Shown here in pieces: positions 6,884-64,000 of a stretch of DNA of 64,000 bases. Source of the DNA: Rozella allomycis CSF55 (Eukaryota); NCBI GenBank assembly GCA_000442015.1, contig KE561145.1, positions 1 to 64,000 of the forward strand, in the 5' to 3' direction. Made by a program: the position numbers and the translations under genes. Under the pieces are notes generated by a model. That model was not told where the DNA came from, ran no database searches, and was given only the letters and a program-made list of their open reading frames with translations. Position 1 is the first letter of the stretch; each line of letters begins with the position of its first letter.

Positions 6884-9238
6884 ATGAAAATAGATACCCG
6901 TGTTAAATATATTACACGCGAATTTTTGCAAAAAAATTGCTTGAATAACGGAAGAAATAAAATTAGTACTCTAGTTTTACGACCAAAACAGCCAACAGAT
7001 CCAAAGATAAAGGTAAAAAGCTTTTCTTGTTCTAAATAGTATATACAAAATCTAGAAGTTCTACCCGAACTAAATGAAATTGATTTTAGTGATAATATTA
7101 TAGAGAAAATAGAGAATATTGCTTGCTGCACAAAGCTAACAAAGCTATGCCTTAGAAATAATCTTCTTCGGAGTATCGATAATATTTTCCCATTGAAAAA
7201 TTTAACTTGCATTGACTTGTCAGGAAATTTGATAGAAAGAATACCAAGTGCCATTAAGCAGCTTGAAAAGTTACAGACCTTGAAATTGGCGCACAATAAA
7301 ATAGAATTGGTACTTAATTTTGCAATTAAAAAATTAGCTATCGGATTTTGAGCACTTGAAAGGACTTTGGAACTTGATGGAGCTTGATATTCACGATAAT
7401 CCTCTTCAAGGAATAAAATATTGGAGATATTTCATACTGTATCAATGTAGAAGTCTTTTATACTTGAATGATCAAGAAATTCAACAGCACGATAGAGAAA
7501 TATCATATGAAAGATTTGGGCGAGGTATTTGAATTTTCACGCGCTGAAATTTAGCTGAAAAAGAAATTCTACTTGAAAACTTTAAGAATGCAAAATGCGA
7601 GAATTTTAACATGGAAAAGCAATTAATTGATTTGAAAAACCACCAAATCAAATTAGAGGTTGAAAATAAGGATCTGAGAGAGGCGTTAAAAGTGTTTCAA
7701 TTGAGAATAAAAGAACTTGACGAAACTTTATCATTCGAAAAGCAAAAGTCGTCTCAAGAACATTCAAGAAGCGAAAAGCTAGCCATTCAGCTTACAAGGC
7801 CTGACAATCATAGTTCACAATATAATCGCGAAAATCTTCAGGCGACTTTAAATAAACTCAATTCGGTTCTTGAAGAAAAGGATAATGAAATTAAAAATTT
7901 GAAGATGGAAATTTCACATAAATTGTTCGATCAATCGTTGTTGAACCAAAATAACGAATCTAGCGTTTCAAAAGAGATCACTTCTTTAAAATCAAAAATA
8001 AGTGAATTAGAAAAAATAAATTCTGCATTAAATGATAAGTTAAAAATTTCTGAAGCAAAGCAACTTGATCTCGTTGGGACAAAGCTGGCATTGGAATCAA
8101 AAATTGATTTGGTTCTCAAAGCCTTGCCAATTGACAAACGCGATTTTTCATTTCTTCCCACTTTTATTAATGTCATAAATAAAGAAAATAATGAATTAAA
8201 GGAGCAAATTTTCAAGATGCAGCAATCGATTGCCACAAATGATCTAATTGAACAACTTGAAGACTCAAAGACAAAGAAAATGAATGAACATGAATCAGTG
8301 GATTCATTTTCATCTCCTACAATCAAAGAGCTACGAAAGCTTCGCCTGGAAATTTCNTAAATATATAGGACAAGATTTTTTTTTAAATGTATACAATTAA
8401 ATCAATAATCGTATTATTAAGGATGAGGGATCCACATCCAGAAAATTCGGAAACATGGATGGGGCTCGAGCCATGCACCTAGATGTCCTAAAGCATCTTA
8501 GTTTGCCACAAGACAACCAAGATATTTTCAGACTTTAAACCTAAAATTTCAAATTTTCTTTTTCATTTCTTCCCACTTTTATTAATGTAATAAATAAAAA
8601 AAATAATGAATTAAAGGAGCTAATTTGCAAGATGCAGCAATCGATTGCCACAAAAGATCTAATTGAACAAACTTGAAGACTCAAAGACAAAGAAAATGAA
8701 TGAAAATGTATCAGTCGATTCCTTTTCATCTCCTACAATCAAAGAGCTACGAAAGCTTCGCCTGGAAATTTCAAATTCACCAAAATTCGTGGATGCAATT
8801 AGCCAAACACACAATAACCCAAATACGTTAAAAGATAAATCAGATTTTTCGAGATTGAAAGAAAACGATTCTGTTGGAATTGAAGGTCAGGAGCGGATTC
8901 GAAAGGCGCAGCAACTAAAAACTCTAATTCATCAGAGAAAACAAAGGCTTTTGGAGATTCAAGGATTTATTCAAGATGCTAAAAGTGAAAGAATTGAAAT
9001 TCAACAAGAAATTGATAGATTAAAACTTATCAGAAATGAGCTTCGCAACGATGTGATAAATCATGGAGAAAAATCGACCATACTAGATAATGACATCCCC
9101 AAACGCGATTCTCATAGCATTAGTGATAACCATACATTCATTAAAGGTTCGAAAACCTTAGAGGGTATCGACACCATATTTTCTCCTGTGCCATTCGGTC
9201 CAAAACCCCGTTTTTTCTCACCGTCTAGCACATCATAA
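6884..9238 (+). CDS. N-terminal LRR plus coiled-coil protein (centriolin/LRRCC1-like); interrupted by an assembly gap and duplication at 8357-8772
   Basis: SDS22-type LRRs (FSDNIIEKIENI, LRNNLLRSIDNI, LSGNLIERIP) followed by a long coiled coil. Confidence 0.65.
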
Positions 9239-13098: not shown

Positions 13099-13858
13099 AT
13101 GGGTCCAAAATTTTCTGTACTATTTTATTTTACTATTCTCTGTATTTGCGTTGCCTCAAGTCCTATAAAGCATGATTCAATGGCTCAAGCAAATGAAAAT
13201 ACAAGTAAGCTGTATCATACATTGGTATGTAGGTATCGAAATGCCGATTTGGGAATATCCAAAGCGAATTATATTCCCAGCGTTCAAAAGTAGTAAAGCT
13301 CAAAATGTGTTAAGCAAAATCCAATCCTTTCTTTCAAGGAAAGGGGTTTCAGAATCTATCAATCCAAATGACATCGGTACACACGAAGAAAGCAGTCACG
13401 AAAAGGTTTTGCCCCATTCATTATCTACGCCAGATATTGATTCTCTAAAAGATAGAGTACTCCAGAAAGATGGATTAGACGACAAGNTACTCCAGAAAGA
13501 TGAATTAGACGAGAAGAACATACAAAAAGTCGAAGCCCAACTTGATGGTATGAATAATGGAAGTGTACCACCTATGAATGCTAGTGTCCAAAGAGAGGAA
13601 AGTAAAGATACTCATATACCCAAAGAAAATTGCTGCCCTCGCGCAAATGTTAATGACAAAGTTCGTTTAAATAATGAATCAAATGAAATTCCACAAAGAA
13701 AAGACATAAATAATGANGACATAAATAATGAAACTATTGAAAATAAAAGCACCCTATACGTAGTCGGATTCACATTGGCAGCCCTTGTGTTTGTCAGCTG
13801 CGTTGCATTAGTTATTCGTAATTTCAAATACAAAAGCATGTTAAAATCGCATAAATAA
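13099..13858 (+). CDS. type I membrane/surface protein (signal peptide, low-complexity ectodomain, C-terminal TM)
   Basis: MGPKFSVLFYFTILCICVASSP joined by intron gtaagc...tgtag to an ORF ending LYVVGFTLAALVFVSCVALVIRNFK. Confidence 0.7.
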
Positions 13859-17677: not shown

Positions 17678-19573
17678 TTATTGTGTAGAAATGAGCCTAG
17701 TAATTTTCCCAATCCCCTTTGTCCTTCCTTCACGAAAGAGTAGTCTTTTTCCAAGTTGCATGTATTCAGGCTTTTTAACGAATCTGAAGCGTACAAACGA
17801 TCGATCGCCTGTCCTTAACACCTTTGACTGTTCTTTGTCACTGTTGGAAACAATCTCCATTATAGTTGCTGTTTGTCGAACAGTCCCACAGTGAATCATC
17901 GTTTGATAGCTGGGCTTAATTGTTGTCGAATGATACAATATAAGAACTTCAGCCTCGAATTCTATTGCAACGTACCCACAAAAAACACTAGGGTACCTCA
18001 AACAACCAGGGTCACTAATGTACTCTGCCAAAGATGGAGACGGACATGGTTTTGGTAATCCTTGTTTGTCAACCACCACCATTCCTTTTCTCAATTGATG
18101 TCTCTTTATTTTTTTCAAAGCTAACGTCGCACACTGGCCAGCAACGGTAGAATTAACATTAACTCTTTTCCTGTGAATAGATTTTATTATGCAAGGGAAA
18201 AATACTCCATGTTCATCAGGCCCAAAATAAAGCGTTTGGCCAACATCAATCTTTCCAGATTGCAAGTTCCCTGAAATCACTGTTCCAACACCCTATTAAG
18301 TATAGAGTAATAAACTTACAGGCACTGAATAGGTTTCTGTTAATTGATACTCAACAGGATCTTCACTGTGGTATTCTTGATATATTGGAAGCAAATTAAG
18401 AAAGCACTTTAAAAGATCCAAGCCAGCACCTGTCACATTAGAAATTTGAAATATCGGACATAATCTAATTTAGAGTTACTTCTGCGTGTTTACTTTTCAG
18501 TGACTAAATTATTTACTACTAAAATCAAATCATGGATTGATTTTATAAAGACCGGGGTTTTCTTGCAACCAGGGCTTTTAACCATTTTCGCCAATTGTTT
18601 CAACGTATCATCCAAAACATTAGCTGGGCACATATCAACTTTTGTAACAACTATGAAAAATGGAACGTTCAACGCAACAGCTAAACCTACATGCTCTTTT
18701 GTCATTCCAACCACCCCTGCATTCGATCCTACTATAAGCATAACAAAATCTGGTGAATATCCAGTCATCCCGAATACACTAAGAATTCATTTCAAAATAA
18801 TTACGTCGTCTTTAAATACTTTTCATGGCCGGCAAGATCAATGAACGTTAAAAGTTTAGACGACTGCATTGACACAGACTCCCAACTCATTTTCCGCAGG
18901 GACACAATCAAACTCTCATCAGCAATTTTCTCAGCCTGATTTATTTCCCCTGTTTTATTTTCTAATTTTTCTATGACTTTTTCAATTGTTTCATTTTTCC
19001 TTCCAATTATACTATGTGTTGTTGCTGGACCAACAACATTCCCATGCTCATCAAAGCCAAGTATTTCCATGCCCACAGAAGAAGTTCTCCCTGTTTCAAT
19101 TTCATGCGGATGTTTGAAAAGTGTAACACGAGCTTTACCACGCCAATTTAAATGTAATAATTACCATTACCCGTCATCCTCCATTCCTTTGGTTATCACA
19201 CCCAAAGTGGTGCTTTTTCCTGCATCAACATTTCCCACCACTGCGACTCTAACCTCTAAATTCAAGTCTGTGACACTGTCAGCCTTGTAACGACAAAGAA
19301 TGACGGATTGTTTTGGACCTTTGTCATCAACTGATGTGTAAATAGGAGTCGCCACAAAATTCAATTCTTCTGACACAACCTTGATATTTTTCAAACAAGC
19401 TAGCAACGAAGATTCGGTAAATGATTCGTCAGCATCAACAAAATTAATAGGCAAAAGAAATTCACCGCGAACGAGATTTTGTTGAAAGAAGTCCTTTGTT
19501 TCCTTGTCGGGGTCACGCTTTAAAATCTATATCTTGTTAATTTGTTGTGATATACCTGAATAGCATCGTTCAT
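17678..19573 (-). CDS. GTPBP1: GTP-binding protein 1 (translational GTPase)
   Basis: [62 protein letters not shown]. Confidence 0.93.
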
Positions 19574-34211: not shown

Positions 34212-34268
34212 AAAATTCAATGTGGCTAAGTTGCTAGTCTTCACAAAACCAAAAAATATAATGAATAA

Positions 34269-37200
34269 CTATTCTTTATTTACAGAATTAGATATGGAAT
34301 GGACACTGTGATTAATAACAGGCTTGGATGAGGTTTTTTGATTGACAGAATTCAGGCTCGGCGATTGATTCACAGTGTTATAATTCACCCAATACTCTCG
34401 GTTCCTTACTATGCCATCAATTATTATAGGAACGGGTGCAAAATTATTCAAGGTATCAAATAATGGCATACACACAATTTCAATAAACCCTCGCTGTGAA
34501 GATGCAACATTTGCCGTCTCGCGGTCCATAAACGCTGATATTGGTAGCCCAAGCTTTCTCTCCTGATCTCCTTGTCTAAAGAACTCTTCCAAAATTCGTT
34601 GCGTCCATATTTGTGTAATTGAAAATGACTTGGTTGGATTTGCTACATCTCCGCATTTAATCAAAATTTTGGCGAGCAAATTATGGTCATCCTTGTTCTC
34701 AAATGGAGAAAAAGTATTTCTATTGGAAATCTTTTTCGTTTAATTTGCGATTTTACCTTGGCCTTGAACGTGTTCACAATTTCAAAGTGATTAAACAAGT
34801 CAGTCGCAAGCACCTTCTCAATGACGCACATAGAAATTTACCAAATCTATTATAGATGATCGCACAGTCTTATATTCATGTTTAGGTAATGCAGAAAGGA
34901 AATTGCATTCAGGGGACTGCAAAATTTTAAATGAAGATGCTAAATGATGATTTTCTAAAACTGATTTGTCATTGTAGAGAATGGCCTTTTCATTGCCTGT
35001 TGCTATCAAAAAGTTGTTATTAAACCCTGGATGGTCAAAATCGTGTATTGCGGAAGCCACAAATAGAGAAAGCATATCCAAAGAGTTAAAGTAGCCCTTT
35101 AACGCTGGATGAGATAAAAAGAAAGACACTGCATGGAGAACATCGGCTGCATGGACGCTATTGTGGTCTATAAAACAAAACCGAAATGATTACATGGTAC
35201 GTCGGGATGATAGCCCTCCTCGATATGTACAATAAATTTTAAAAATAATTCTGTTGATATCTTAAATTGGCCTATAAGCCCATACTGTTGAAATAAATAG
35301 CATGTTAAGAATGCCAATGGTCTATTGCTGGTTGCTTCTGCAAAATCAAAGATGCCAAAATTCCATTCTGTTACAGATGCTATAATTGCATTGATTTTTG
35401 ATAACTGAGAAGTATTTTCAGGACACGTCTCTGGATATTCGGTAAGACAAATAGCATTGTAGCAATTTCCTTGCAGAAGCTATTAAATATATATTAAAAA
35501 ATTACTTGCTCAACAACGGGATTAACATTTTTAGGTAGTGGAGGTGCACCATAAACCGAGAAGGTAGATCCAGCAGCATCAGTCACAACTTGACTGACAG
35601 AATTAATTGTCGTTAGAGAGCCAGAAACGGCATTTTTAATTGCTTTTAATGTTCCATACTTTCATTTTACTTGAAATTGGTTGCGCTTGAACCGAAATGG
35701 ATGAATTCTCTGAGACCGTCTCTTTGTTGTTTAGATTGTCAAAGGCATTAGCCGATGTTTTCATAATGCTATTCCGTCTTTGTCTACTTGGAGTGCCAGG
35801 ATCCTTTATCGTTGAATTACTAGTATTTGAATTTATTAATAAATTGGATGAACTCTTCTTCTTTCTATTTGCTAATTCAGAAAAAAGCCAGGCCTATTTT
35901 ACAAAGATAAAAAAATTACTTCTTGCTCAGGATCTATTTTAAGTTGCTCTTGATTTTCAAAATCTGGCTGATTCAAGTTTCCAGAGTTTAACAATGTCAA
36001 TACATGAGTTAAAGTGTGAACTTGCCCCGAATTCAAATACGGATCTGCTAAAAGAGACCTTAAGGATGCTAATGCCTTTTCCAAAGGCGACTCTACATCT
36101 GCCAAGGCTTGATTGTTAAATGACTTTTTCAACCCCAGTAATTGTTCAGTTAGCTGACTATTTCTTAGATGCAATAATCTGGAATTGCAAAATTGAACCC
36201 TCAAATTCATTTCTGTTTCATATGCCACAAAACAAGAAATTATACCAGCCCCAATCAAACCCATATTAGTTGTTAGAAATCCTGAAACAACGTTGATCCC
36301 ATTTATGTTCATAATAGAACTGAAACAGATGATTACAGTCACAATGAATATTACGCTTTGCCAAAATCTAAATCTACAGAATATTATTAGCACTAGCATC
36401 ATAACCGACACAAATGTAGCTGACGTAAAGGGTGAAGAATGACCCTCAATGACTATGAATCTTATTATTATGCCAACTAGAATGGCAATGAATGTAAGGC
36501 CTAAGCCTATCATGGACATATTCTTTATGAAGAAAGGCTTTGGTAATAGGTAAGAGCACAAATAAGCAGCGAATAAAGGTGCCAAAAAACCCAACAATAA
36601 AAAATACAAATCTACAGTGAAATCATAAGAAGAGCAAAGAGTATTGCAAGGGCAAGATGAACAAAAATATCCACTCAAGTTTGTTTCTGCCGATGAAGAA
36701 CTTCTACGTGAAACAACATCTAGGTAGAACTTCCCTTGAGCAGGATAGGTTAAAAGAATCCATGTTAAGGCTAAAAGACTAATTAAAGATCCCGCTAGAA
36801 ATGCAAACCTCCACGCACGAATGATTCTTTCATAAAACCATTTTTGATATTCTTTTTCGACATCCGCATTTTTGAAACTTAGCGAATAATTAAACACTTC
36901 ATATTCCTTTGGCAACTTACCATTTGAGTAATTAAGAGAACTACCTTTACTCTTTTTTAAAGGATCAATTTGTTGCTGTGAATCACTGACTGATCCTATA
37001 AGATGGTCGCCAGGAGAATTTAAAGCAGAAAATGGATTGAATTCAGATTTCTGTTGCTTTTTGAGAACACTATTGGAGGAATTGTTTGAGAGTGACGACT
37101 TTTGTCTTTCTTGACGAAAATGACCAATTAAACTTGGTCTCTTTGTTGATGATGTAATTGCATTTGCATCTGAACTCATTCTTCTGCTAGCTTGTAATTG

Positions 37201-39212: not shown

Positions 39213-40347
39213 TCAATCGGGAAGAGACTTAGGTAGAACAGGTTTAGACAAAATTATTCTATTTTAGGTTGGTATATTTGAAAAATTACGGTTCATTTTT
39301 AAATTCTACAATATACTTTATATCATCGGGATAAAGTTGCCATGTATCAGCTTTTTAAGACTTCTTAGTCATCTTACGCAATTCGTGATGCAGGTCATTT
39401 GAAGTTAAAAGAGTGACACCAGCTTCATCATCTTGTTCAGTCTGAAATTGTTCCTTGTTAAAGTTCAAGTAAACCAATGGATCAACCAGTAAGACATTCA
39501 AATCATTACATGGCTCTCCATGATGATTTATTGATTCCATAGAGTCGATAACATCTAACTCTCGAAGAATCTCCCAATAGCTTAATTCTACCTCGTTGAC
39601 ATTAGATGATTGATCATTTTTGTGAAACCTATCCTTCTCATTCCTTTTGTATTTATAATAGTTTACAGTAATGACCTAAAGACGATTATAAACGGTTTAT
39701 ACTTTTAATTCTTTGAAGTCTAAAAGGTTTTCTATTATACAATGAGCTACATGTTGAAGCCAATCCTTGGAAGTCTTCAGATGGCTGCTAATGTTTATTT
39801 TATCCCCCGATTGCAATATGGAAAGTTTCTGGTATTCAAGTAATTCTGGGCCCGAATTTTCATCACTGGTTTCATTTTCGTCCGTAATATGGATTTCATT
39901 ATCGTATTTGGTATCGTGATACGCTTCATACCTTCTTTCCACCGTCTCTAAATAACTCTGATTAAATTCATCTTTAGAAAGTGGGTATTCATCGTCCAAG
40001 CCAACGCTTAATTCACTTTCTTTATGAAACAAATCTGATATGGAGTCTATTACGATGCATTCAATCATTCCTACAAGAGAGGGTGCATTATGCTAATACC
40101 TGAATTAATTTGTTGTTTTATTTGTAATATGCATGACAATAATTGCCATCCATCGTGAACTTGAACATACATTGGTTTATCCATCCAATGATTTCCTGAG
40201 TCTGCAAGTCTTAATCTTAGATGACATACCGATGTATAAAGTTTTAGAATCATTTTTTAAAATATATAGTGATATGTTTTCCGAATTAAAATTTCTTGGC
40301 AATACTAAATCTGACCATCGACTGTCGTCGTGAAAAATACTTTTCAT
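39213..40347 (-). CDS. divergent RecA/RAD51-paralog-like protein lacking Walker A
   Basis: KTLYIDSGNHW and CIVIDSISDLF after splicing; 5 introns. Confidence 0.5.
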
Positions 40348-40363
40348 AAATTTTGGCAGTAAA

Positions 40364-41404
40364 TTATTTTTTTATTAAAGAATTATCTTTTAAAAACTGT
40401 ATGAACTTTTCATTTTCAATCAATGATTCCAACTCACATTTCGATGATCGTTGCAACAATGCTGTAGCTTCACTCCGAATGGTCAAATCTTCGGAAGTTA
40501 ATAAGCACTTTAGGATCGATAAGTCCCGCTTAGAGAATGGTAGCATATGTCTTTCTTTTAAATTGTATCTTTTAACGCGTAGTGGTGATGATACCTTTCA
40601 AATTGATACGTTTTCAATCCTAATAGGTCTATTGACTTAACAGCTAAATCTTTTCTCGACTAAAAAATTATAATTATGGTCCTTACTCTTGATCCATTTT
40701 TATAGATTGAATAAATATGCAAACCATGTGGATCGTTATCGACTAGGGCGTATATACATACATTAAAAATACAGCTGTTAAGAAAATGAAGTAATTCTCT
40801 TGTTCTCTCGCAAGGATAGCCTTTCCCCTAGTCAACTTTTATCTACTTTATTACACATATCAACAAGGTATTGGGGAAATTGAACTCTTTTAGATAATTG
40901 AAAATTGTCTCCTTCTCAATAACTAAGATAGCGTCAATTTTTTCAATAAATTTAATTTTGCAATGATCCCAATTCTCTGGTATCTGTCCACCCTAATCAA
41001 TAAGAGAAATTCTGTTCATACATTTGAGAACTCAGTTGACAATTCATTGTATAAAAATATCAAGGGTCCCTTTATTAATCCTTTCCCGGCAGCCACGATG
41101 TGAAGTTCTTTCCTTGTTAGCCCGGTGAGTTTCATTATTTTGTTCAAGGCTTGTTGCATTTGCTTTTGCGTTCCAAATAATCCAACATTTTCATAATACA
41201 ATTGCCTTTAAACTATTTTCGAAAATGATACCTCTGATTTAGATGGCGATTGCTAGTAATTAAGTTAGAACATCTGTTCAAAAGAAATACCAGTCGGCAA
41301 AAGTATTCCGCGTTACGGACTATTTTCAATATTCTACTATCGTCTGTGCTGTTCCCGGTTAATGCAAGATACAAAGTCATTACAACCTCTTTAATGTTTT
41401 CCAT
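40364..41404 (-). CDS. SPO11: meiotic topoisomerase VI-A homolog SPO11
   Basis: RQLYY (catalytic Tyr), AAGKGLIKG, LVIEKETIF, GKGYP, ALVDNDPHG, LPFSKRD..KCELESL. Confidence 0.92.
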
Positions 41405-41525
41405 TATTGACCCTTGTAAATGAGAAAATTAGGTATATTTTTTACACTTCTTATAAATTTATAGCCAAGATCTATTATGTACTATACTACTAAGTAAACG
41501 TAAATATAGTTAATGTTAATTTATT

Positions 41526-42057
41526 TTAATTGGTAATCGGAAAAGTTTTAATCAGTGTAAACGTCGATTTTGAGAATTCATCGGCGCTCGAAACTTGATC
41601 AGCTTCGACATAGTTATTCTTCTTAAAAAGGTCAGCTACATACGAATCATCATTTTTACACTTCACAGAGATGGCTTTGACTTCGGCATCTATACTTCTA
41701 TTAATGAATTCCTCTATTTCTTCTAGTATATTTGAATCTAACAAATAGAATCATTGCTAATTACTAAACAATACACTTCTGTACTCTGCTAAAACACAAA
41801 ACGTGATTAGCTCTATATTACAGGTAGGATCTTTTTGAAGAACTATTTTCTTCGCAGCAAAAGCACCCACGCATAGGTCTTTGTAGTAAACTATTTGATT
41901 TAAATGGAGACGTAATACCTAGTTGGCATATCATATCATGTTTGAAAATTTGACTGTAAAAGGCATTATCGAAAGATTGATTTTGACATTTAGATATCAA
42001 AATTTTCAGCTGCTTTAGATTATTAGCAGTAATATCTCCTAAAGAAATTTGCTGCAT
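41526..42057 (-). CDS. NAA50: NAA50/San-like GNAT protein, degenerate acetyl-CoA motif
   Basis: ISLGDITANNLKQLKIL, FY, VYYKDLCVGA, CVLAEYR. Confidence 0.7.
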
Positions 42058-42319
42058 TATGCGAATTTTCAAAGTAGAATTTACTTTTTTCTAGAATGTA
42101 AATAATTCGATCAAATGATTATGTTTAGGTAATTTATGACTGTTATAATATATTTGTATGATAGTTTCTTATTGTAACTTGTTAATCATTAAACGTGAAA
42201 TTTCAGAATTTCTTTTTTTCGACCCTTGTCAAACCTTTGGTAAGTTTTGTATAGTTTTTACGCTCTGACTCTGCCTTTTGAATATAAATTTTTGGACTGT
42301 CACTAATATTTAGAACACG

Positions 42320-42783
42320 ATGTTGATTCCAAAGCAAAATCGCCGCGCTATTTACGAATATCTCTTTCGTGGTAAGTGACAGAGTGAAATATAACAATAG
42401 AGGGAGTCTTAGTTGCAAAGAAAGATTACAATGCTCCAAAGCACATGGAACTCGATGTTCCAAACTTGCAAGTTATCAAGGCTTGTCAATCATTGAAATC
42501 CAACGAATATGTTAGAGAAGTCTTTTCATGGCAACACTATTACTTTTTCCTTACTGATGCTGGTATTGAATTTCTTCGCCAATATTTGCATCTCCCAGCT
42601 GAAATTGTCCCAGCAACATTGAAAAAGACTGCACCAATTCAAAGACTTGGTGAAAGACCACAAGGACGTCGTGAAGGAAACGAAGATTACCGCAAGGGTG
42701 AAAAGAGCGTTCCACCATCTGCTGACTACAAGGCTGAATTCAGAGGTGGTTATGGACGTGGAAGAGCAACTTCTAACCAATAA
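42320..42783 (+). CDS. RPS10: 40S ribosomal protein S10 (eS10)
   Basis: [49 protein letters not shown]. Confidence 0.97.
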
Positions 42784-46467: not shown

Positions 46468-47573
46468 TTATTTAATTGCCTTCATCTTGCACAAAATGGA
46501 CCCTCCCAGCCAAGAATTGCCGACTAAAGAGAAATTTGTGTCTTTAATTTTTATGAAATTTAATAAATGATCCATATTTTGCGTCCTTAAAGCTTCTCTT
46601 AATGTTTGTTCTAAAGCACTCGAAAAGCCGCTAGCAGAACAAGTTCCACCAGACAGTAAAATATTTTCCATTAAAGTTTTTCTTGTGTCGCAAGGACACT
46701 AAATTTTTTTTGTCAAAAGTTTACCTTTTTTATTACTTTTACGATCAACTTTGATATATTCATATCTTCCCATCCCTCAACAAAAATTGATCTATAAATA
46801 TCTGAGAATATTCTTGACGGGACTTGGAAAGTGTTATCTTTATAATCGAAGGATATCATCGTTTCATTTACATCTATGCTATTTTCAAGTTTGACTAGTG
46901 AAAACTTGGTTTTTAATGCTTCGATATAATTATTGTCAAAATCTGTCTCTGGAAATAATGATTTTAATGAATTTTCAAGTGCAGAACTTACGTCTTTCCC
47001 TCCAATCGGTATGATCTCAACCAGATTACACAACTGCCGTCCTTCAAATATAGGTGTGACTGTACAGTCATTGTGGCCACAATCTATCACTAATCCACTC
47101 GAACAGCCATATGAAATCATGGCAGCTATCGAGGAAGGTATATATCGAAGACTATCACACTAGATCATTCTTGAAAAAAAATTGTACCATGTAGCAATCT
47201 GTTAAAATTTCATATAAATAGTCTTTGATATAAGATGGTAGAAAATGATTTTCAATTATTATCACCTTCTTTCTGCTATTAAGTTGAAAATGTTTCATTT
47301 GGATTTCTTTTAGACAGTCCTTTATACCTTCTCTATAATCTTCACGGGAAGGTATCTTTAATTATCTTCAAATACATAAACTACTTTTGCATTGTTCTGC
47401 ATTATTTCATAGCATCCAATATTATCCTCAAGTGAGGCAACATTATAAATATGTTTTTGATAATTTAATATACAACGTGGAGCTATTTCACCAGCGATTC
47501 CTGCCTTGAAAGAATGTAAACTAACGTCGAATACAATAGTGTCATCAGTGTGGAAATTTTTCTGAAAACTCAT
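46468..47573 (-). CDS. actin-related protein, Arp10/Arp11 (dynactin)-like
   Basis: KAGIAGEIAPRCI, SGLVIDCGHNDCTVTPIFEG, NILLSGGT, SWLGGSI. Confidence 0.75.
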
Positions 47574-49364: not shown

Positions 49365-49954
<590 letters not shown>

Positions 49955-52295: not shown

Positions 52296-54594
52296 CTATA
52301 TTTTATTTTTTAGCATCGATTTAGCAATGAACAAGTATTTGTCGACCGCTTCTTCAATTCTCTTTTCTAAACTTTTTCCACTTCCATGCCCAGCCTATTT
52401 GATTGTAAACTCATATTTACCTTTGTTTCAATCCTTATTAAAAGAGGATGATCATTTTTGGGCAAATTATACTGAAGTTCAGATATCCATTTGTATGAAT
52501 GAAGTGGCACAACTCGATCGTCATGATCACTGGTCATTACTAGCACGGGTGGATATTGCTTTGAAGAATCAACGTTATGGACAGGCGAATATCTTTTAAA
52601 AATGTGAAGAATGTATACTTTGACAAACATTCGAAATGCTCTACAATGTCTGGGTTACCATATTCATCCATCCAAGCATGGCCGATTGTAAATTTATGAA
52701 ATTTCAACATATCCAAAACCCCAACCTCGGCGATTGCACACCCAAATAATTCGGGTGCTTGATTTACACATGCCGCCACTAATAATCCTCCATTGGACCC
52801 ACCATTAATCGCCAACAATGAGGGGCAAGTGTAATTATTAGCAACAAGGTACTTCGCAGCCCATTGAAAGTCATCAAAAACATTTTGTTTTTTATTTAAG
52901 ATCCCGGCTTTATGCCATTCCTCGCCATATTCGCCGCCTCCACGCAAATTCGCGATTGCAATAGTCATATTTAGCTCATCTGCCGCTGCGGCCATGCTTG
53001 AACTAAAAAAAGGTGTCAGAGAAATGTTAAATCCCCCATATCCATATAACAGACATGGTGTTTGTCCATTTCTTGGGATGGATCTTTTATTAAAAATGAA
53101 CATGGGGATTCTCTGAGAATCTTTGCTTTCATAGAAAACTTGCTCTATAACGAATTTAGAGGGTTCAAACCCCACAATTTCATCTTGCCTCCAAATGGTT
53201 GGGGTTGTGGTCAAGTCAGATAGGTCATATTCATACACCAATCCAGGGGTATTGAAAGAATAAAACTTAAAAAATACAACAGTATCCTTTTTTCTGCCTT
53301 TAATGTAAGCAACAGAGCCAATATCTAGTGGAATGCAAGTCAGGTGAGTCCCAGACAAGTCAAAGACATCAATTACATTCTGTTTTCAAATCATGAATCG
53401 TTTACCTTGACATCTTTCATATAAACACAAATAAGTTTATTTTTTGCAACGCAGTAGCATGATTCTAACACGTCTGCCGCCTCAGGAATAACAACGTCGA
53501 CCTTTAAAAGAAATGTAAAATTAATACTAATGAAGTGTTATTGATGTCTATTTTAATCAATTTTTCCTTTAAAGCATTTGAATTGGTCTTCAAGTAGAAA
53601 ATATTATCTTCATTTGTAATGTATTCGTAACTGGCTTCAAAATCATCGAAAAGCTTAATTATTTTGTGCTTGGAAAAATCACAAATGTCTAATTGTTGCA
53701 CAAAAAGTTTGTTAGCATTTTCTGTAGAGCGACTTGTGGAAATGATTAGATACTTCCCATCATCAGACACAGTGGCGCTGGGCCGCCAATATGGCTCATC
53801 GGAATATTCAAATATTAAAATATCGTCTTTTTGGCAAGTTGCTAGTTTATGGTAGTACAATTTCGGAAACTTATTTAGGTTAGTTTCGGTACCTTTATCT
53901 ATTTGTTTTATTTGTGGATAGCGCTTTATATAACAAGGACAATTTTATTACAGTGTAGAAAAATCCATCATCATTATGTACCCAGGAAATCGAACTAAAT
54001 TTTACCCATTCAATTCTGTCTGGAAGCTTTTTCTTCTCCACGTCTTGAATTTGAATTGTCACCCAGTCACTGCCATTACATGATACACCAAAGGCAAAAT
54101 ATTTCCCAGATTCACTGAAAGAATATGTGTTCAAAGACGCACTCCCGTCAACTGCCAACTCATTTGGGTCGAAGAATACTTCTCCTGGGTCACTTATTGT
54201 TCTTGTTTGGTATATTTTTCGTATAAATTTAGAAAAGGTTTCTTACGAATGATTAAATGTTCCATCATTATAGAAATAATAGTAGAATTCACCCGATTTA
54301 AAAGGTGCTTCAGTTTTTTCGTAGTTGAAGAATTTTTTGAACCTTCTACATTCATAACAGTATTGTTACCTATCTTTAAGTTTGCTTCTAAGAGGATCAT
54401 CATTGATATACTCAAAGAATAGTTCATTTTGTGACGAAACAAATGCCTGGTGAAACTAAATGATTACTTCATACCCTCGTTTCATCAGAGTCAGGATTTT
54501 CAAGCCATGAATAGGGGTCAGAGATTGATCTACCACAACAAAGGTATTTAGAATTAATATCTCTCGTCACAAATGGAAAATTGAAGCTGCTCAT
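52296..54594 (-). CDS. PREP: prolyl oligopeptidase (S9A)
   Basis: DPYSWLENPD, LYGYGGFN, GGSNGGLL, DHDDRVVP, AGHG. Confidence 0.95.
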
Positions 54595-54635
54595 TTGTAA
54601 AATTCACAAAAACAATATTACGAAATGTCATAAAT

Positions 54636-55649
54636 TTATATAGAAGCATTATAGTTTTGGTTGCATCCGTTAATACCAAAGGTAAGGAATCGTCCCTTTT
54701 CTGGGAATCTATAGTTTCTTCCCTTTGTATCAATCACTCTAAAGAAATAGTTCTGGCAGCTTTGATTTCCTAATAAATTCCCATCATTGAGTTTGAAATA
54801 GTAGACACCTCTGTTTGATGAGCCATATAACAAGGAGAGACCCCTGGCCTGCTGTCCGATTTGAATCCATATTTTAGATGGCGGTGCATCATTAACATAA
54901 GTGACTAGAAAAAGCAGGTTATTTGTGTTAAGGGAGGTCAATTTAGGACTTACATGCGAGCCAATAACCAAAGCAGAGTTATAATCTGTATTGCTAGCAC
55001 CTCCAAAATCCTATTTTGTTAAATCGTTTGTCCCATTACTTGGATCACGCAGTTATTTGAATTGGCCACACCTAACTCTGTCGCTGACGCCGCAAGTAGG
55101 TTTTCACAGTGTCCCATTTTTGATCTAATCCACCCATCCTAGAATATCCATTTAAAGAATAGATTACCATTATTTCCACTGGGGATATTGGACCAGCATA
55201 AATATTTTCAGCAATCCAAGCAGGTTTCTTATAAAATGACCATATCCTGCTTGACCAAGAGCAAGATCCAAACTTGTAGCATTCACTGGGGCAAGTATCA
55301 TGTTGCCAACATCTAAATTGATGAACAAAATCTTGAATACCCTGGACTGCGCTGCATTGAAGTACAATGGAACCTTCCGGATTGAGTTAGTGCCATATTC
55401 CAAAATAGATGTCTAGCAGGACTTCCGTTGTAGAGACAATTTCCGGTACCAGCGTTGGAAAAATTGTTCAAATATGATTTTGGATCTGGATTGGAAAGAC
55501 ATTTCAAATACTTTACCTATTCTAACGGCGTTAGTTAGAGTGTGTATAGTTCTCTCCAAGTACGTGGTTTGAATGTCTCCCTGGAAAGTGGTGTATTGCT
55601 GTGAAAACGCATTGCTTATAAGAAAGGCCAATAAAGTAAACGATTTCAT
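54636..55649 (-). CDS. secreted CAP/SCP-domain protein
   Basis: Signal peptide; TLTNAVR, RFHCTSM, QHDTC, AENIYAG, WIRSKMGHCENL. Confidence 0.75.
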
Positions 55650-55704
55650 GTCTTTAGCAGGATCGGGATCGGAAAATAAATTGGAATGGACTAAAAATAC
55701 TTTA

Positions 55705-57311: not shown

Positions 57312-58317
57312 ATGGTAAAAGGATTGTTTCATATTGATAGAAACTACGAGTTCGACTTTCGCATAAAGTTTCCACTTTAGATCTCGATGAAAACATGAAA
57401 ATCCAAGAATTTATAGACTTAATTTGTGATCAAGAAGCTAAAGAGAGTCTTGGTACCATCAGGACCGGCGTGCCTCCGAGATCGGTGGCGATTGCAAACT
57501 TAAATATGTCACTCAAAGATATAGGAATTAAAGATAGAGATACAATAACTATTGAAAATGGCAATACATTCAAAAGAAAAACCATTTCCAATGAAATGAT
57601 GGTAATAAGAAAAATGGCAGATGATAATTCTTGTTTATTTAGTTCAATCGGGTACAATTTAGACTGTAAAAATCATGAGATATTTGTTGGAAAATAAACG
57701 TGCATGCCAGGCTGATGCCTTGCGACAAAAAGTCGTAGAGTTTATTCTCTCTCACCCAGATGACTATAATTCCGTAATTTTAGGTAAAAACGTATCGGAA
57801 TATTGCCAATGGATTTCTAAACCTACATCTTGGGGTGGTAACATTTACTATAGATTAAGGACAAGGCGCGATAGAAATTTCAATCTTTTCAAAACTATAT
57901 AAAATACAAATAGCATCAATTGACGTTAAAAGTCTTAGAGTAGATCTATTTGGTAAATTCAAACTTCTTTTCATTTGCAGGAGAGGAAGACAGTTTTCCT
58001 GATCGCTGCTATATTGTTTACGATGGTATTCATTACGACTGCATTGTTTCTACATATAGCAATAATGAAACCGCTCAAGATATAACAATTTTTTCGTCAA
58101 AGGATGATTTTGCCTTGGCGTCAGCAATTTCAGTTGTTGAAGAGATTTCAAAGGTATTCAATTCTTAAAAATGATAGATAAGAAAAATATGTTTACAGAT
58201 TTGGCTAATTTCACAATCCGATGCGAGACTTGTCATTCTGGCTTCATAGGTACTGATGACGCTCAAAGACACGCACAGGAAACTGGCCACACTAATTTTG
58301 CAGAATTTAAAAATTAA
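57312..58317 (+). CDS. OTU1: OTU1/YOD1 deubiquitinase
   Basis: MADDNSCLFSSI, WGGAIEI, YDGIHYD, C2H2 finger CETC..HAQETGH. Confidence 0.92.
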
Positions 58318-61959: not shown

Positions 61960-62697
61960 ATGCCAAAAGAAAGCGTTCTCGTTTCTAATCATTTGACAAA
62001 TACTTTAACTGTTTCTCAAAGAAATGTCTCTAGTGCTTTGTACGAAAGAATACAAAAACTTTTTCCAGGAGAAGGAATTAAATCCAATCACGCCCCAACC
62101 CCAATAATTTCTAAATCAAGTCCTGTTAAAGAGTTAATAATGAAGTTTGATACAAAATTTAATGGGCTGGAAAAGGAGTATTTGCTACTAACAAAGAGGA
62201 CCTCAATGCATCCACCAAATGGTGGGCAATCAAAAGATTCCTTTCAAAATAGTATAAACTACAAAAAGGCATATGTTGACTATAAAAACTGGATTGAAAA
62301 GAATGGTGGATTCCTTACTTTTTCTTCAGTCGAAGCATTATATGGAATATCCCAAGACGTCCAAAAGGAGGGCACAGTCCTAATAATAGACCATACTATT
62401 AAAGAGGGCACCATAATTGTATGCAATGATAAAGGGCGCAATAGTATCAATGAAATGATTATTGGCAATGTCGTGAATTTCAACAAAATGGAAAAGCTAC
62501 CGTTAGTCATAAATGACTTTTCTAATATTGCTAGCCATAATTGCCATTGGAATAGTTTTATGGACGATTCATCAAAAGCTATGAAGGATTTTGATAAAAT
62601 GATGAGAAAAGTTGCCAAAGAAGAGTCACTGCGGCGAACGTTTTCAGAACTAAAAAGCAGAGCTCAAAATTTGTCCAAAATTATAAGAGTGGATTAA
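61960..62697 (+). CDS. hypothetical protein
   Basis: Intronless 245-aa ORF, no recognised domain. Confidence 0.5.
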   Translation: MPKESVLVSNHLTNTLTVSQRNVSSALYERIQKLFPGEGIKSNHAPTPIISKSSPVKELIMKFDTKFNGLEKEYLLLTKRTSMHPPNGGQSKDSFQNSINYKKAYVDYKNWIEKNGGFLTFSSVEALYGISQDVQKEGTVLIIDHTIKEGTIIVCNDKGRNSINEMIIGNVVNFNKMEKLPLVINDFSNIASHNCHWNSFMDDSSKAMKDFDKMMRKVAKEESLRRTFSELKSRAQNLSKIIRVD

Positions 62698-62777: not shown

Positions 62778-64000
62778 ATGTTCATATCTCTAGATGATTT
62801 TACACTAGAAGAAAAGGTGGGGGAAGGCACATTTGGGTATGAAGAGTATTAATTTTATTAACTTGAGAGAAGTTTATAAAGGACTGCACAAATCTAGCGG
62901 AGAAAAAGTAGCCTTAAAGCGTTTGTTGGTACATAAGAGAGAAACTGGGGTAATTAAAATCAAATATTTTTTAAAGTTTCCTCTCACCTCGATAAGAGAA
63001 ATTAGCGTGTTACAAAGCCTGATGCATTTAAATATAATCAATATTCACTCATTTTGTACTGGCCCCGGTGAATCTGGCGACGATATTTACATGGTATTTC
63101 CATACATGGAACATGATCTTACTGGTATTTTAGAGAATCAAACAATCAAATTGTCTAATTCCATTATTAAATGCTATATGAAGCAACTTTTTGAAGGTTT
63201 ATATTATATTCACAAAGTAAGACATATTTTTCATCTTGATGCTGGCTGGTTTTATCCACAGAGATATTAAGGCTTCAAATTTATTGATTGACAATAACGG
63301 AAATTTAAAAATAGCTGATTTTGGCCTTGCCAGAAAATATAATTCAATCACTTTGACTCCAGGTGTGGTGACAAGATGGTACAGGGCTCCTGAAGTATTG
63401 CTAGGATTAAAAGAGTATACCCCTGCTATTGATATTTGGAGTGGCGGGTATTTGGACTGATTTTTCATAAACAGATGCGTTTTTGCCGAAATGTTTAAAA
63501 GAGAGCCAATTTTTCAAGGTTCTTCTGACATTGATCAGCTCGAGTTAATAATAAAATATCTCGGAAATATTGATGAGCGGAATATGCCGGGTTATAAAAA
63601 TTGTATTGTTTCACCAAGAAGGCTAAACAATCAAGGAGGAAGCGAACAGTTAAGATTGTATCTAAATACGTACTATTTATCAAATTCTGGAACATTAGTT
63701 TTATCCAAGATAACACTGCTATCGAGCTAATAGAAAAAATCCTATGCTTAAACCCGCACACTCGCTTAAAAGCGTCCAGTGTCCTTACCGACAACTATTT
63801 CTGGTCTTTTCCACTCCCAATAAAAAAGGAAGAGTATTCGCAACAAAGCTATGTTATTTAGGATACCTTCATTCCCTAGTAGTCACGAAATCGATAAAAG
63901 AAAGCCTAGAAAACGAGAACTTGAAACGAAATATAACCGTATCACTTTACCATATATAAAATAGACATTAATTTAGGCAAGAATAATTCCATTCTCTCAA
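62778..64000 (+). CDS. CDK9/Bur1-like cyclin-dependent kinase (ends at 63964 or runs off the window after a further intron)
   Basis: [63 protein letters not shown]. Confidence 0.9.

Follow-up and report, generated by a model that had tools for sequence, protein, structure and literature searches.

A probable 28-nt intron ending in TG in a CDK9-like kinase gene of Rozella allomycis, and two further candidate non-AG introns in the same 64-kb stretch

Here we describe a putative intron with a non-canonical 3' end in a CDK9/Bur1-like kinase gene of Rozella allomycis CSF55, found at the far end of the first 64,000 nucleotides (nt) of contig KE561145.1 (GenBank assembly GCA_000442015.1); this whole stretch, which is AT-rich (G+C about 34%), is referred to below as ‘the window’. 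By position, donor and length the third intron of the gene, a 28-nt segment at 63217-63244, would be an ordinary member of the local intron class, except that its last two bases are TG. We suggest, with a probability of roughly 0.7, that the productive messenger RNA (mRNA) arises through this 28-nt GT..TG splice, the spliceosome cutting after G 63244 to join ...YYIHK to AGFIHRD.... That U2-type introns end in AG is a rule of gene structure with few equals in firmness. Coordinates of the features discussed are collected in Table 1.

An earlier note on this DNA, made from its letters, had described the same 28-nt GT-TG segment and had called it obligate. Much of that description is borne out: excision of 63217-63244 fuses the flanking exons in frame to give YIHKAGFIHRD, and retention lets the exon-3 frame run on for 17 codons to a TAA at 63268-63270, as the note had said. 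When all introns near the site that stay in frame and meet no stop are enumerated, the next two AGs available to the donor at 63217 (ending at 63261 and 63263) prove to be out of frame, again as claimed, and the third (63270-63271, a 55-nt intron) is in frame and removes AGFIHRDIK. The in-frame options of 22, 25 and 28 nt from this donor each end in TG, the note having already remarked on the 25-nt one. It is the word ‘obligate’ that has to be given up: a canonical 25-nt GT-AG intron at 63197-63221, whose AG sits within the GTAAG of the donor at 63217, also keeps HRD in frame and is used by both public records, so that obligate use does not follow from the sequence. The 28-nt GT..TG splice is nevertheless the best-supported reading.

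Table 1. Positions in the window of the kinase gene, its contested intron and the two further candidate non-AG introns
Feature	Position	Strand	Remarks
CDK9/Bur1-like kinase gene	62778..64000	+	Cut by the window end; C-terminus beyond the window
Kinase exons	62778-62836, 62868-62949, 62977-63216, 63245-63447, 63475-63669, 63699-63833, 63862-63938, 63965 onward	+	
Candidate TG-ended intron, 28 nt, GTAAGA...CTG, phase 0	63217..63244	+	Between ...YYIHK and AGFIHRD...
Rival canonical intron, 25 nt, GTTTAT...GTAAG	63197..63221	+	Used by the public annotation
Seven codons G L Y Y I H K, kinase alpha-E helix	63196..63216	+	Exon in the TG reading, intron in the public model
First AG past the TG, 17 nt on	63260..63261	+	45-nt intron, stop two codons later
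HRD codons, catalytic loop	63257..63265	+	
Candidate intron with TG acceptor, 27 nt, GTAATG...TTG, phase 2	19144..19170	-	GTPBP1-like GTPase
Candidate intron with CG acceptor, 27 nt, GTAAGA...ACG	54220..54246	-	Prolyl-oligopeptidase gene

The kinase gene itself is represented in public databases. Exon 3 (62977-63216) matches ‘kinase-like protein [Rozella allomycis CSF55]’ (P0002, that is EPZ32541.1 and RKP21839.1), to which Pfam Pkinase matches with 210.6 bits; splicing the window with the 25-nt alternative reproduces the first 343 residues of P0002 letter for letter, and the exons away from the contested intron are identical to it. The remaining six introns are all GT-AG with a GTA start, their lengths being 31, 27, 27, 29, 28 and 26 nt. 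HRD and DFG lie in exon 4, and a PITALRE-like helix is present. CDK9 is the top solved relative (240.7 bits), in agreement with the earlier note, with CDK12 at about 230, CDK1 at about 194 and CDK2 at 188 bits; because CDK9 and CDK12 outscore CDK1 and CDK2, ‘CDK9-like’ is a fair predicted label, with the proviso that these scores do not split orthology inside the CDK9/CDK12 group. A metagenome scan with the kinase found 11 loci, all of at most 50% identity, and no close relatives among them; these loci were left out of the comparisons below.

Homology discriminates between the splice options. Against a profile of 144 of the 149 homologues from a representative search (five were dropped for too short a match), the 28-nt TG product scores 429.1 bits, the TG products of 25 and 22 nt 423.3 bits each, and the public 25-nt AG product 408.2 bits, i.e. 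20.9 below the first; the AG options of 55 and 67 nt, which lose HRD, reach 392.8 and 382.5 bits. With the 28-nt TG splice the end of exon 3 falls on Pfam Pkinase position 116 and the second residue of exon 4 on position 118, without a gap. Motifs were counted in the 142 domains in which HRD is matched, the remaining 2 of the 144 lacking such a match: upstream of HRD a G stands at -11 in 135, a Y (the second) at -8 in 113 and a His at -6 in 140, and the five-residue spacing recurs in 131 of the 134 homologues that bear the motif. The 28-nt TG product has the G, the Y, the His and this spacing, which upholds the earlier claim of normal CDK spacing; the public model has none of them, replacing the conserved G-L-x-Y-x-H with eight unrelated hydrophobic residues, plus one extra residue. 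Moreover, the 21 nt before 63217, which the public model treats as intron, encode in frame the same six residues that human CDK9 has there, a match that is not due to chance. In two relatives, P0003 and P0005, both of about 50% identity, an intron begins at the same codon position and is read through. On this evidence, the 28-nt TG splice is the only one predicted to yield a gap-free, motif-complete kinase.

Set against this is the possibility that the public annotation is right, i.e. that the 25-nt GT-AG intron at 63197-63221 is used and that the alpha-E helix of this kinase simply diverges and lacks the conserved His. No other GT-AG intron of less than 90 nt leaves HRD in frame, both public records adopt this one, and a second 25-nt GTT...AG intron may exist in an OTU-like protease gene of the window. 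We regard it as unlikely all the same, given the 20.9-bit deficit, the loss of a G, a Y and a His that are kept by 135, 113 and 140 of 142 homologues, the residue gained, and the six CDK9 residues encoded in the segment that it discards; its donor and its length, which are considered below, also speak against it.

Base 63243 is a real T. In the DNA runs X1, X2 and X5, which come from three studies, the contigs carry T there, not A, with no differing letter and no second contig over the site, the word depths being 273, 258 and 115; the TG end on which the earlier note relied therefore stands. X1 and X2 match the window at all 1301 bases. In X5 six nt are inserted in frame behind 63640, and bases 63759, 63783 and 63950 are substituted, differences that suggest a second allele or strain, and because it departs from the window at these four other places we count it as a partly independent copy. 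That the true letter is an A, hidden by sequence error or carried by an unseen allele, is in our view highly improbable: the assembly may derive from the reads of X1 and X2, but T is found in the contigs of all three runs at the depths given, and X5, variable at four positions, does not vary at 63243.

We described the intron class of the window with our own dynamic-programming gene finder, which is GT-AG based and was applied to all 64 kilobases (kb), its intron sets being models. With priors left flat for both intron length (18-45 nt) and donor, it returned 81 introns, 54 of them of 26-29 nt and 53 of these 54 starting with GTA; the remaining 27 are noise-like, with 13 A, 8 T, 2 C and 4 G at donor position 3. 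Once trained, the finder modelled 80 introns, their lengths being 26 nt (32 introns), 27 nt (14), 28 nt (17), 29 nt (10), 30 nt (2), 31 nt (2), 22 nt (1) and 45 nt (2), such that 77 of the 80 fall within 26-31 nt; 77 start with GTA and three have a GTT donor. The length distribution has a sharp lower bound, two-fifths of the set (32/80) lying at exactly 26 nt, and an AG situated 20-25 nt from the donor is bypassed in 16 of 77 modelled introns. At the 3' end the modelled introns show an A at -4 and a T at -3 before an AG that, in all of them, holds by construction; no branch-point consensus is visible in the modelled introns of the window. For comparison, the available part of one source gives about 2.5 introns per kb for R. 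allomycis (PMC8476143), and that of another gives about 30 nt for two R. allomycis S23 introns (PMC6349667).

Measured against this class, 63217-63244 has the GTA donor and, at 28 nt, a typical length, and departs from it in the AG end. Scored on splice signals without the last dinucleotide, the 28-nt intron obtains +1.83 bits and the 25-nt rival -7.52 bits. The GTT donor of the rival is of a kind found in 3 of the 80 modelled introns, and its length is found in none other: the flat-prior run contains two 25-nt introns, one being that of the public kinase model and the other differing by 3 nt from a modelled 28-nt intron, and the gene models of the window hold no other independent one. Three further procedures were tried and set aside: a codon-score filter for introns, which was too weak (known introns score near zero), a gene finder admitting introns of up to 100 nt, which chained neighbouring genes together, and one with cheap non-AG ends (penalty 4), which mostly returned AT-rich noise.

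A second candidate emerged in a GTPBP1-like GTPase gene on the reverse strand, where the gene finder, when allowed non-AG ends for introns of 26-31 nt at a penalty, chose a 27-nt GT..TG intron. The TG splice gives ...GMEDD, a split G codon and RGKAR..., within a D-[DN]-G-R-G stretch that is invariant around the junction (G-R-G in 58 of 58). From the P-loop motif to the GRTS motif, 58 of 59 homologues of at least 400 residues have 28 residues; the TG splice also gives 28, whereas the public model gives 14. In that model, P0163, a 69-nt GT-AG intron takes out 14 of the spacer residues; the other public model, P0162, has the same donor and continues into sequence that is not related. The next AG lies 11 nt past the TG. 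Judged by its homologues, this GTPase needs the predicted 27-nt GT..TG intron at 19144-19170.

A third case, in a prolyl-oligopeptidase gene, is weaker than both TG cases. Here the public model (P0251) has a 45-nt GT-AG intron at 54202-54246, one of the two modelled 45-nt outliers, and a 27-nt intron with a CG acceptor would restore six residues, aligned with a conserved [VI][LC][YF] strand, that the public intron deletes. Profile scores are 154.3 bits for the 27-nt CG splice and 150.9, 150.1 and 142.1 (the last being the public model) for the other in-frame options. With the CG splice the spacing is 21, the homologue mode, which is shared by 7 of the 12 pattern-matched homologues (of 16); the spacing of 15 in the public model occurs in none of those 12.

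The public models of the three genes rest on the same DNA and have the same remaining exons. EPZ32541.1/RKP21839.1, P0163 and P0251 differ in that they force GT-AG introns of 25, 69 and 45 nt, at the cost of 7, 14 and 6 conserved residues, which are replaced or deleted. Annotation pipelines take canonical sites only, and the models at the GTPase and oligopeptidase loci are demonstrably bad, which further reduces the weight that the public kinase intron derives from having been annotated.

The same two loci bear on another alternative, namely that the first downstream AG is used at the kinase site, giving a 45-nt intron (63217-63261) and a frameshift, so that the gene would be dead or mostly unproductive following a recent change of the acceptor A to T. 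This would be the behaviour seen in human AG>TG mutants, and two 45-nt GT-AG introns figure in the gene models of the window; of these, however, one is the oligopeptidase case itself. The other exons of the kinase and its six other introns are intact, the T is common to the variant copy X5, and two more conserved genes would need to be dead within 64 kb. We therefore think this account improbable too. The other 45-nt outlier, at 34239-34283 (-), belongs to an unconserved stretch of a large gene, and may hide a non-AG end of its own.

Counting the kinase, the GTPase and the oligopeptidase, non-AG ends would make up 3 of about 83 introns in the window. Because these three are of typical length, have a typical donor and lack only the A, cutting by the spliceosome at non-AG ends would be the simplest account of them. 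We propose that, in ultra-short introns, it is chiefly the distance to the 5' splice site and the branch that fixes the 3' end; the second catalytic step would require a terminal G and tolerate a U, perhaps a C, at -2, whilst a hard 26-nt minimum and a narrow length range would together act as a ‘ruler’, lowering the need for the A of AG. An AG some 11-18 nt downstream may aid early recognition, as at human TG sites. The general form of this proposal, in which a length ruler sets the 3' ends of introns of 26-31 nt and a few per cent of them end in TG or CG and are constitutively spliced, we would regard as an even bet.

A further alternative is removal of the 28 nt by a non-spliceosomal route, for example one of the IRE1/ligase, HAC1/XBP1 kind. 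It has only the small size of the segment in its favour, and the 5' end is a standard GTAAGA donor of this genome; IRE1 sites take the form of a CNG/CNG loop (the slash marking the cut), which neither kinase junction fits. We give this route almost no credence.

Several considerations weigh against the reading that we prefer. The kinase splice, the cut in the RNA included, is one that we infer from protein homology, and a canonical in-frame GT-AG option exists that both public records have adopted. The intron sets come from our own GT-AG finder, which after training draws on statistics that it had itself produced. A crude open-frame test carried out for each end dinucleotide was not discriminating (AG 95/409, TG 13/336, others 0.039-0.080), with TG having the lowest rate of all sixteen and no general excess of GTA...TG. 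The second 25-nt GTT...AG intron, at 57686-57710, would weaken the argument from length and donor if it is real. Among the three non-AG sites, the read-contig check covered that of the kinase alone, and if X1 and X2 are the assembly's own reads then only X5 is independent. Lastly, in the available part of the human survey (PMC2374985), TG is only ever an alternative and never the sole site, and AG>TG mutants activate neighbouring AGs.

That survey, by Szafranski et al. 2007, provides the closest known comparison: its available text reports TG 3' sites of U2-type introns in 36 human genes, sites marked by a pyrimidine at -3, a purine at +1 and an AG no more than 28 nt away (PMC2374985), and GNAS and TSPYL2 are given as examples elsewhere (PMC4176328). 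The Rozella sites resemble these in having a GT donor, in the context CTG/G (kinase) or TTG/G (GTPase), where -3 is a pyrimidine and +1 a purine, and in having an AG nearby, 17 nt downstream in the kinase and 11 nt in the GTPase. They would differ in two respects. The human sites are alternatives beside a used AG, and lie in long introns, whereas in Rozella the TG product alone is predicted to give a normal protein; the Rozella introns, moreover, measure 27-28 nt, and the rate would be some 2-3 in 80 introns.

A second point of comparison is offered by genomes with ultra-short introns. Those of the Paramecium/Nyctotherus type are described as GT-AG introns. Rozella would share with such regimes a narrow length distribution and a hard lower bound, which here is 26 nt, and non-AG ends on introns of typical length would be the new element. 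The Paramecium and Nyctotherus introns are of about 25 nt, according to the available part of the source (PMC5014332). Our literature search found no report of non-AG or non-canonical splicing in Rozella, with the reservation that the supplements of the genome papers may hold intron statistics or expressed sequence tag support; the word ‘intron’ is absent from PMC5701793.

Should this interpretation be correct, GT-AG-only annotations of Rozella, and perhaps of other genomes with ultra-short introns, would mis-model genes of this kind, and the damaged public models of conserved genes in a much-used reference genome would be explained. R. allomycis serves as the sister group to Microsporidia in fungal phylogenomics, and studies of orthology, domains and intron evolution inherit errors in its models. 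Such introns would also constitute a natural system for the choice of site at the second step, where distance and sequence could be set against one another near the minimum intron size.

Other places in the window were considered as possible non-AG introns. Two, GT..AC at 54221-54246 and GTC..TT at 8172-8197, are artefacts of a wrong frame or of an intron that is not needed, and a TG candidate at 40074-40099 has a canonical TAG 3 nt further on; a screen for orphan donors gave 34 rows, mostly beside canonical introns that were either modelled or read by eye (for instance 49539-49565 and near 49771). At 47347-47375 (-) a frame change occurs at a GTATTT donor whose only AG, at 20 nt, is too short for this genome, the in-frame options being 26 nt ending in CT and 29 nt ending in CC. 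The frame change in the OTU-like protease gene, at 57666-57710 (+), can be read either as a 28-nt GTA..AA intron (57666-57693) or as the 25-nt GTT..AG intron mentioned above, homology favouring neither. Further candidate sites are (+)13293-13320 and (-)41745-41774.

Some minor features of the window may also be recorded. The regions 40100-42400 and 54600-55700 contain several open frames of 70-120 codons from which no gene was built, and where unusual introns are possible. Eleven single N letters occur, at 8357, 9341, 9440, 9552, 9861, 11138, 11244, 13487, 13717, 14280 and 27968. Directly upstream of the kinase lies an intronless gene of 245 codons, at 61960-62697 (+).
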